Below, one piece after another: positions 30,875-31,298 of a stretch of 37,153 bases of DNA (its first letter is position 1; each line of letters starts with the position of its first letter). The notes beneath the pieces are model-generated. The model had not been told where the DNA came from. It saw only the letters and a list, made by a program, of their open reading frames with translations, and did no database searches. Origin of the DNA: Candidatus Liptonbacteria bacterium (lineage in GTDB: Bacteria; Patescibacteriota; Minisyncoccia; UBA6257; 2-01-FULL-56-20); contig JACOXZ010000004.1 of the NCBI GenBank assembly GCA_016182105.1, positions 1 to 37,153 of the forward strand, given 5' to 3'. Position numbers and translations under genes: made by a program.

Positions 30875-31177
30875 TTATTTCGGCGGTTGGATTATATATT
30901 CCCTGGGCTTTTCTAGAATTTTCCCGAAAACCTGGAGTTTCTCGGAAAAAACATCATAAATAACAGCTGCTCCCCTTTTTAAGGTCGCTAAAAAGGAGAA
31001 GCTTCCCTTTGGCTGACTTATTTCCTGGGGCGGCGCATTGAAGCCAGCCAAAAGATTATTAAAGTAAGCGAGCCAAACGTAAACTACGCCGACCACCACA
31101 ATCGCGGTTAGGCCGATGAGCCAGCGCCTTTTAATTCTCTCATCGGATGATTGCAGTTTTTCTAAAAAATTACCCAT
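30875..31177 (-). CDS. Small membrane protein (one TM) directly upstream of gyrA. The likely start is MGNFLEK; the ORF-track start at 31213 adds MSGRRSRSVSNG, encoded by the element repeat.
   Basis: ORF plus TM (LIGLTAIVVVGVVYVWLAYF). Confidence 0.4.
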   Translation of the reverse strand: MGNFLEKLQSSDERIKRRWLIGLTAIVVVGVVYVWLAYFNNLLAGFNAPPQEISQPKGSFSFLATLKRGAAVIYDVFSEKLQVFGKILEKPREYIIQPPK

Positions 31178-31298
31178 CCCGTTAGAAACAGATCGCGATC
31201 GGCGACCTGACAATAATTAGTTTATTGAAACGACTTTTCATAACTTAAAAATTATTCTTTTTTGTTACAGAGCGATCGCGGTTTCTAACGGGACCCAT
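31175..31298 (-). repeat. Copy 3 of the TIR-bounded element. Arms are CATCCCGTTAGAAACAGATCGCGATCGGCG and AGCGATCGCGGTTTCTAACGGGACCCAT. It lies between the MBL-fold gene and the small membrane protein, and its left arm ends exactly at that ATG.
   Basis: Same architecture as copy 1, including the GATCGCGATC / GCGATCGC palindromes inside each arm. The flanking 6-nt direct repeat is ACCCAT. Confidence 0.6.

Follow-up and report, generated by a model that had tools for sequence, protein, structure and literature searches.

The window analysed here, the whole 37,153-nt contig of a Candidatus Liptonbacteria MAG, carries on its − strand a 100-aa gene followed by gyrA, and a short inverted repeat directly abuts the start codon of the 100-aa gene. 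What this repeat is, how it came to lie against a start codon, and whether the host makes use of it are the questions raised by the locus. A preliminary description presented it as the third copy of a TIR-bounded repeat element. This interpretation of copy 3 is supported, with the arms in place and four inverted pairs found in the window.

Copy 3 and its companions in the window

The 115-base copy 3 occupies positions 31178-31292, and its ends are the exact inverted arms CCCGTTAGA and TCTAACGGG, the former at 31178-31186 on the + strand and its exact reverse complement at 31284-31292. The hexamer ACCCAT is found on both sides, at 31172-31177 and 31293-31298, as a direct repeat that had already been pointed out and that matches at 6/6 positions; the + strand of 31172-31298 reads ACCCAT-CCCGTTAGAAACAGATCGCGATCGGCG...GAGCGATCGCGGTTTCTAACGGG-ACCCAT. 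On the coding (−) strand ACCCAT is ATGGGT and corresponds to the first two codons, start codon included, of the 100-aa gene that precedes gyrA, and the order on this strand is the MBL-fold stop codon, 10 nt, ATGGGT, the element, and ATGGGT-AATTTTTTAG... The features of the locus are as follows.

31309-31866, − strand: MBL-fold gene, upstream of copy 3
31293-31298, − strand: upstream target copy, ATGGGT, a pseudo-start codon 10 nt past the MBL-fold stop
31268-31292, − strand: 5′ arm in gene orientation ('B-end'), CCCGTTAGAAACCGCGATCGCTCTG
31205-31267, − strand: AT-rich interior, related to the copy 1 interior (AGTCGTTTCAATAA...)
31178-31204, − strand: 3′ arm ('A-end'), CGCCGATCGCGATCTGTTTCTAACGGG
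31172-31177, − strand: downstream target copy, ATGGGT, the true start codon (31177-31175) and codon 2
30875-31177, − strand: 100-aa protein gene, starting at the ATG that abuts the arm (NCBI annotation)
28428-30872, − strand: gyrA, after the 100-aa gene

Termini of the copy 3 type have the form Y-CCCGTTAGA-RRY ... RYY-TCTAACGGG-R and are able to form a 13-bp stem, and the last base (T) of the upstream ATGGGT pairs with the A of the real ATG. The terminus with a sub-terminal hairpin beside it is the A-end, which in copy 3 has a sub-terminal palindrome inside and directly abuts the real start codon. The interior holds no ORF, tRNA or Rfam match; in Rfam 15, only tRNAs pass the gathering threshold in the window, and a permissive scan of 31100-31380 returned noise. 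No convincing promoter or terminator is found on the coding strand at copy 3. An intrinsic terminator was considered and rejected, the only terminator-like site being a small hairpin on the + (non-coding) strand, while ATGGGTAAT comes after the stem on the − strand. An exact look-up of the MBL-fold protein returned no record. The GyrA of the window (28428-30872) has 814 aa and no intein; GyrA with an intein is found in two relatives, L143 (8402-12160, 1252 aa, with a LAGLIDADG domain) and L144 (2250-5864, 1204 aa).

The open reading frames 30875-31213 and 8077-9378 each open with a TTG inside an arm, and their N-terminal peptides, MSGRRSRSVSNG and, on the htrA side, MRRSRSASNG, are the 3′ arm read as protein. 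The preliminary description had called such extensions artefacts, as is borne out by the NCBI annotation, in which the protein has 100 aa and starts at the ATG abutting the arm, and by relatives without the element, where this ATG is likewise the start.

In the 37-kb window CCCGTTAGA, counted together with its reverse complement, has eight exact occurrences, all of them as four inverted pairs 88-99 nt apart (9349/9453, 26966/27074, 31178/31284 and 33534/33631). By our own arithmetic, about 0.3 exact occurrences of a given 9-mer are expected by chance on both strands of a 37-kb window. The four copies are:

9346-9467, − strand: copy 1, between the class-V aminotransferase gene and htrA
26963-27088, − strand: copy 2, between the solute-binding-protein gene and the pilin-like gene, with an ATGAA duplication
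31175-31298 including flank, − strand: copy 3, between the MBL-fold gene and the 100-aa gene/gyrA
33533-33640, − strand: copy 4, perfect 14-nt arms CCCCGTTAGAAAAT / ATTTTCTAACGGGG around tRNA-Pro(UGG)

Copies 1-3 share one layout on the − strand: upstream stop, ATG-RRT-CCCGTTAGA-xxx ... xxx-TCTAACGGG-ATG, downstream gene. A tRNA search found none in these three copies. All genes adjoining them lie on the − strand, and their products (HtrA, class-V aminotransferase, pilin-like protein, solute-binding protein, GyrA, the 100-aa protein and the MBL-fold protein) are functionally unrelated. Copy 1 is flanked by ATGAGT and ATGAAA, which have ATGA in common, and in copies 1 and 2 the upstream ATG overlaps the TGA of the upstream gene in the ATGA register (in copy 1, the aminotransferase stop). 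The kinship proposed between copies 1 and 3 stands, their arms being 93% and 80% identical and their interiors related.

The palindrome GCGATCGC/CGATCGCG is the inner stem of the subfamily of copy 3 and no genome-wide feature; GCGATCGC is not over-represented, occurring three times in the window, two of them within elements. A role of GATCGCGATC or CGATCG as a methylation site or regulator target, raised in the preliminary description, is unsupported: in other lineages these sites are replaced by the unrelated complementary sequences CGCGGTCGC, CACGGTCAC or GGAAATC...GATTTCC. A HIP1-like or methylation palindrome was rejected for GCGATCGC on the same replacement and the absence of enrichment.

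The window contains several other repeats. A 44-nt repeat (20559-20602 and 28389-28432, 89% identical) lies directly upstream of the starts of two − strand genes, those of PNPase and the solute-binding protein, at tight junctions. A TAGGTTATAGGTTTTAGGTTATAG-type repeat occurs in direct and inverted copies (9930-9964, 33748-33777 and 34794-34820), one in the aminotransferase ORF region and two bracketing the tRNA-Arg/tRNA-Val/VTT-domain gene region. A 40-nt hairpin repeat (CTCTAAGAACCCTCGGTTCTTAG..., 23534-23573 and 33077-33116) is found about 50 nt past two + strand genes and may be a shared terminator-like element. Phosphoglucomutase (12154-13468) and an Xer-like tyrosine recombinase (21744-22614) are each apparently split into two overlapping ORFs, which could reflect a frameshift, a sequencing error or a pseudogene. 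The Xer-like protein is the sole recombinase encoded in the window, and no transposase gene is encoded in these 37 kb.

Empty, filled and scarred junctions

Relatives of the copy 2 site were obtained by a metagenome scan with the solute-binding protein, which returned L121 and L122 (83% identical). Both are empty: the stop codon of the solute-binding-protein gene runs straight into ATGAAAAAAATTTATTT... of the same pilin-like gene, and ATGAA occurs there only once. At this place the sequence of the window is ATGAA-T(CCCG...CGGG)ATGAA-AAAATTTATTT. For the copy 3 site, the contigs of homologues of the 100-aa protein were compared, with protein identities given relative to the window:

L137: empty; protein 73% identical; TAG + 10 nt + ATGAGC
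L139: empty; protein 87% identical; ...aaaaag ATGGGT
L133: filled; protein 89% identical; flanks ATGAGT / ATGAGT
L134-L136: filled; protein 81% identical; flanks ATGGGT / ATGGGT
L140: decayed; protein 84% identical; left arm lost, GGG of right arm changed to TGT
L138 (229-243): scar-like; protein 86% identical; five extra bases, ACGAG, at the place of the element's ACGGG end
L141 (339-357): scar-like; protein 83% identical; ATGAGT changed to CCT, original start codon gone, gene starting at a downstream TTG

Copy 3 is a real insertion, because the same junction is empty, filled, decayed or scarred in relatives. The empty sites hold a single target copy, and the spacing of stop, 10 nt and ATG at the upstream flank of copy 3 is that of the empty sites L137 and L139. 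The lesions in L138 and L141 look like scars of imprecise loss or deletion. In more distant relatives the order S1 / MBL / small protein / gyrA / solute-binding / pilin-like is kept, with no such element at these junctions.

Other small inserts are found at the same places. In L142 an element of about 65 nt, GAGATACCAATAT...TAGTATCACAT, lies at both junctions that hold copies 3 and 2 in the window (7924-7990 and 12270-12336), and L143 has GTGAAGC tandem repeats at the junction equivalent to that of copy 3 (7942-8000). Judging from these sequences, the copy 2 and copy 3 junctions seem to be hot spots for small inserts.

Copy 3 is probably a non-autonomous, MITE-like mobile DNA element. It is short and non-coding, has a 13-bp paired terminus and an ATGGGT/ATGGGT duplication, and belongs to a set of dispersed copies with presence/absence polymorphism (four copies in 37 kb, at variable junctions).

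The degree of conservation bears on this reading. The copy 3 element of the window differs from that of L133 at 2/115 positions (98.3% identity) and from that of L134 at 6/115 (94.8%). Equal lengths of flanking coding sequence show 7-19 differences, with third codon positions 75-88% identical, and the dip in divergence is limited to the element. The flanking hexamers change together (AGT/AGT in L133, GGT/GGT in the window and L134), in each case as the local codon 2 allele. A neutral relic should not be conserved above synonymous sites; either the element arrived, or arrived again, at the copy 3 site after the lineages split, by recurrent hot-spot insertion or transfer, or it is under selection.

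On a rival reading the host now keeps the element in its mRNA, whatever its origin, as an exapted cis-acting RNA hairpin. The stem would hold the real AUG at its base and be opened either by ribosomes that start at the duplicated upstream AUG or by those that finish the upstream gene, which would couple downstream translation; alternatively, it would mark the mRNA for processing or stability, for instance as an RNase III site. Conservation 3-6 times above that of adjacent synonymous sites, an effect confined to the element, argues for such a role, but close relatives manage without it at the same junction and the genes that flank it are functionally unrelated. A wobble test on the sense strand counted 14 G-U-type against 12 A-C-type mismatches, which is no excess, and folding energy shows no consistent difference between strands. 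With no wobble sign of sense-strand RNA selection, a host function is therefore kept as a minority rival, which we consider unlikely.

The family across genomes

A scan of species-representative genomes with the pattern CCCGTTAGAR-N(78-108)-YTCTAACGGG returned at least 120 loci, and public genomes hold at least 130 further copies. The taxa among the matches listed include Patescibacteria (Saccharibacteria, Paceibacterota/Parcubacteria groups, Levyibacteriota, Kazan and Berkelbacteria) as well as Omnitrophota, Planctomycetota (including Scalinduaceae and Pirellulales), Deltaproteobacteria, Elusimicrobia, Edwardsbacteria and Stahlbacteria. No match to the element was found in plasmid and phage collections; viral contigs gave two hits, mutually identical in the stretch shown and without the flank signature. 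Literature searches on the motif itself, on MITEs in these phyla and on start-codon duplication found no description. This is apparently an undescribed family of small mobile elements present in many bacterial phyla.

The flanks of the copies carry a clear signature. Their 6-nt flanks are direct repeats (at least 4/6 matches) in 101 of the 133 copies listed, whereas the next 6 nt, used as a control, mostly give 0-2 matches. The consensus of these 133 copies is R-T-G-A-A-Y-CCCGTTAGA...TCTAACGGG-R-T-G-A-A, with a target duplication of about 5 bp, and the commonest duplicated 5-mers among them are ATGAA (34), ATGAG (11), ATGGA (10) and GTAAA (9). The rare flank variants ACTGAT, GTTGAC and ATATGT also match on both sides, and the repeat is therefore copied from the target. 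In the tandem arrays L027 and L031, neighbouring copies share one hexamer. A minority of copies, copy 4 included, have CTTGY...RTGAA flanks and no duplication. An origin of the inverted repeat by chance or as an assembly artefact is practically negligible in view of the four copies in the window and at least 130 in independent assemblies, the recurrence of the element at one site in independent metagenomes, and a flank signature far above the control.

Pairing extends beyond the core of the arms. The base outside each arm (Y/R) is 98% paired, and positions 10-12 vary and are 92-95% Watson-Crick paired (shuffles reach at most 0.67); ungapped pairing ends at position 13. One end, the A-end, has the form NNN-AGR with a local hairpin, e.g. 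GATAGGAAATCTTTAGATTTCC; in copy 1 it is CAGATCGCGATCTG and in copy 3 CCGATCGCGATCTG. Sizes range from arms with a 3-4-nt loop (L074 3406, L093 6015) through 45-80 nt up to 280-386 nt. Interiors are unrelated between lineages, and most copies lack a long open frame running across them. The ends also vary by lineage, Patescibacteria having mostly T...A and other phyla C...G with GTAAA flanks.

Such a conserved box at the base of a stem, with co-varying neighbouring positions, an asymmetric bulge that sets the polarity and a loop of 3 nt to more than 300 nt, is also what would be seen if a single-stranded hairpin were moved by a structure-specific enzyme (HUH/RAYT-like or tyrosine-recombinase-like), as are REPINs, IS200/IS605-derived palindromes and attC sites. 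The arm motif GTTAGA/TCTAAC resembles the attC consensus core, GTTRRRY/RYYYAAC, and class-2 flanks lengthen the stem only via G-T pairs on one strand. Co-variation of the two terminal repeats is, nevertheless, normal across members of ordinary IS families and therefore lends no support to a hairpin mechanism. Real duplications of arbitrary target sequence flank the copies, and REPIN/RAYT, IS200/IS605-type and tyrosine-recombinase-like enzymes are not known to make such duplications. The order of the boxes is moreover the reverse of that in attC, with GTTAGA 5′ and TCTAAC 3′ on both strands, the neighbours are syntenic housekeeping genes with no cassettes, and the mismatches are biased toward neither strand. 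Movement of this kind appears very unlikely.

Unrelated phyla share identical 10-bp termini, which implies either a transposase of wide distribution or horizontal spread between bacteria of groundwater and sediment. An autonomous parent would show as an IS-sized pair of arms around a transposase ORF; no such pair was found in about 870 kb of fetched flanking sequence or in the window itself. One candidate, the arm pair at 1953-3710 of L088, was discarded as a chance match inside a 1065-aa ORF.

Copies in which the element carries a tRNA form a distinct arrangement. Copy 4 encloses a complete tRNA-Pro(UGG) (33551-33622) within its perfect 14-nt arms, and its flanks, CTTGC and GTGAAGG, form no direct repeat. 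Upstream of it, at about 33682-33706, are remnants of the 5′ half of an outer tRNA, the only half recognisable in the window. The distant relative L143 (3755-3945, 2300-2480) has a Pro unit as in copy 4 with the same flanks, and there the copy-4-type flanks together make up a complete outer tRNA, split in two, that holds the unit in its anticodon loop; a tRNA-Val is arm-enclosed inside a split tRNA-Val with the opposite polarity. These account for the 3/55 tRNAs that are flanked by arms in all fetched loci. A tRNA intron of the bulge-helix-bulge type, whose removal from position 37/38 should leave a 7-nt anticodon loop, was also considered for copy 4. In-silico excision in L143 restores a full cloverleaf for many different boundaries, none of them singled out for a 7-nt anticodon loop, and the arrangement is accordingly read as the disruption of tRNA genes by an element that brings a working copy with it. 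The intron mode of ARAGORN, run on copy 4, only joined the 5′ half of the outer tRNA to the inner one as a chimera and was set aside.

Between copy 4 and the L143 unit the arms and the 8-nt flanks are conserved and the acceptor stem of the inner tRNA differs. Conservation of arms and flanks over this distance is consistent with retention by the host as an RNA hairpin; the opposite flank polarity of the Val and Pro units of L143, relative to tRNA sense, argues against it, as do the interiors unrelated between lineages. It is also conceivable, if quite unlikely, that the element is in addition a start-codon-homing hairpin cassette kept as a translation or processing module in many phyla, and that its tRNA variant could replace resident tRNA genes via their anticodon loops while delivering a working copy. 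A module of this kind would explain both the conservation above synonymous sites and the identical flanking start-codon copies, and the tRNA variant would then represent a self-compensating way of moving tRNA genes.

Start codons, translation and known systems

An RTG directly follows an arm in 88 of the 133 copies listed, and 73 of these 88 open ORFs of at least 60 codons, compared with 25% for random RTG positions; the upstream ORF ends in the ATGA overlap register in 13. Copies of the start-codon type make up 70/89 (79%) in Patescibacteria against 8/32 in other phyla, among the copies listed. In 38 copies the A-end adjoins the downstream RTG and in 5 it faces upstream, a polarity that a symmetric-TIR transposon would not give by itself.

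On the reading as a mobile element, a putative transposase acting in trans would make a staggered cut at an RTRAA pentanucleotide (most often ATGAA, ATGAG, ATGGA or ATGGG), and insertion of the TIR-bounded element followed by fill-in would duplicate about 5 bp of target. If the target is an ATG with the two bases after it, the ATG and the frame would be rebuilt by the downstream copy, so that the gene would survive, and the dead copy of the start codon would stay upstream at the old distance from the upstream stop codon. Both are observed at copies 2 and 3, where start codon and frame are intact downstream and the upstream ATG keeps its old position relative to that stop. Insertions at start codons would be those that purifying selection tolerates in gene-dense Patescibacteria, leaving survivors on start codons. 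We infer that the start-codon bias most simply reflects which insertions survive where spacer DNA is nearly absent, a view supported by the other phyla, whose genomes are larger and whose bias is weaker.

A Shine-Dalgarno-like motif precedes the downstream RTG in only 2/60 copies, and downstream translation cannot rely on a nearby motif of this kind. In 23/60 copies a mini-ORF that begins at the upstream ATG terminates within the 3′ arm or at the downstream start codon, and in none of the 60 does it read through in frame into the gene. The arm TCTAACGGG itself supplies stop codons: by inspection of the sequence it has TAA in one frame, and a second frame runs into TGA if the gene begins with ATGA, as in copy 1. 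Two routes to initiation are plausible. The 13-bp stem could bring the old initiation/termination (ribosome landing) site beside the new ATG, or translation from the upstream ATG could melt the stem and end in the 3′ arm or at the real start. The rarity of Shine-Dalgarno-like motifs, the ends of the mini-ORFs, the stop codons of the arm and the 38:5 orientation relative to the gene would all fit a hairpin exapted by the host. A coding leader peptide was rejected, the mini-ORFs being 6 to 42 codons long, conserved only where the arm is read (MNPVR) and never in the frame of the gene. Translational hopping between matched codons was also rejected; codon 2 differs between the flanks of copy 1 (AGT vs AAA) and of copy 2 (AAT vs AAA).

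These findings have several implications. In the annotation of Patescibacteria MAGs, hundreds of false N-terminal extensions (...RSxSNG-M...) and wrongly called starts could be corrected. Patescibacteria have tiny genomes that are regarded as poor in mobile DNA, and a high-copy element that survives by regenerating start codons illustrates how selfish DNA can persist in gene-dense genomes. The elements part translationally coupled genes by about 120 nt of hairpin, which offers a natural test bed for initiation and coupling in unculturable organisms. Should the nesting of a tRNA in an element in another tRNA prove general, it would constitute a new way in which tRNA genes turn over.

Several known systems share features with the element. 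The ends of IS1380 and piggyBac-type elements, which begin with CC...TAGA and are flanked by 4-5-bp duplications of a T-rich/A-rich target (TTAA for piggyBac), offer a possible likeness that covers only a few bases, and no transposase of this type was found adjoining the arms. Integron attC sites likewise have a 7-9-nt box at the base of the stem with GTTAGA/TCTAAC, a co-varying stem, asymmetric bulges and a variable loop, and lie between genes near a start codon. The element, however, reads 5′-GTTAGAR ... YTCTAAC-3′ on both strands where the attC order is 5′-RYYYAAC ... GTTRRRY-3′, its neighbours are conserved housekeeping genes in fixed synteny with only the hairpin present or absent, and the window encodes no integron integrase. 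The palindromic elements derived from IS200/IS605 (PATE) differ in their left and right sub-terminal hairpins, have neither TIRs nor duplications and insert 3′ of a fixed tetra- or pentanucleotide, and so do not fit an element with TIRs and duplications of variable sequence.

REP/REPIN sequences (RAYT) are similar in having two inverted units, a hairpin of about 100 nt, compensatory arm changes, an extragenic position in operons and polarity. REPINs are not known to have a target duplication and carry a GTAG-type motif, whereas the present element has real duplications and a different conserved box, and no RAYT gene was seen in the loci covered. The Rickettsia palindromic elements (RPE) are, like it, palindromes of about 100-150 bp tolerated in very compact genomes with genes kept functional. 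RPEs insert in frame and are translated; here in-frame read-through occurs in 0/60 copies, and the gene is saved by duplication of its start codon.

The closest comparison is with the bacterial MITEs (Correia CREE/NEMIS of Neisseria, RUP, ERIC and MITEAba12), which are also about 100-150 bp long, have TIRs, target duplication and many copies, and are found intergenically within operons as co-transcribed hairpins that are present or absent among strains. The termini YCCCGTTAGA match no family found, the duplication is about 5 bp of RTRAA rather than TA, most Patescibacteria copies lie exactly on the start codon and regenerate it, and the same termini are spread over many phyla, with one variant carrying a whole tRNA gene. 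The element is best placed among MITE-like families, from which it stands out by its termini, by a duplication that regenerates the start codon, by its spread across phyla and by a variant that carries a tRNA.
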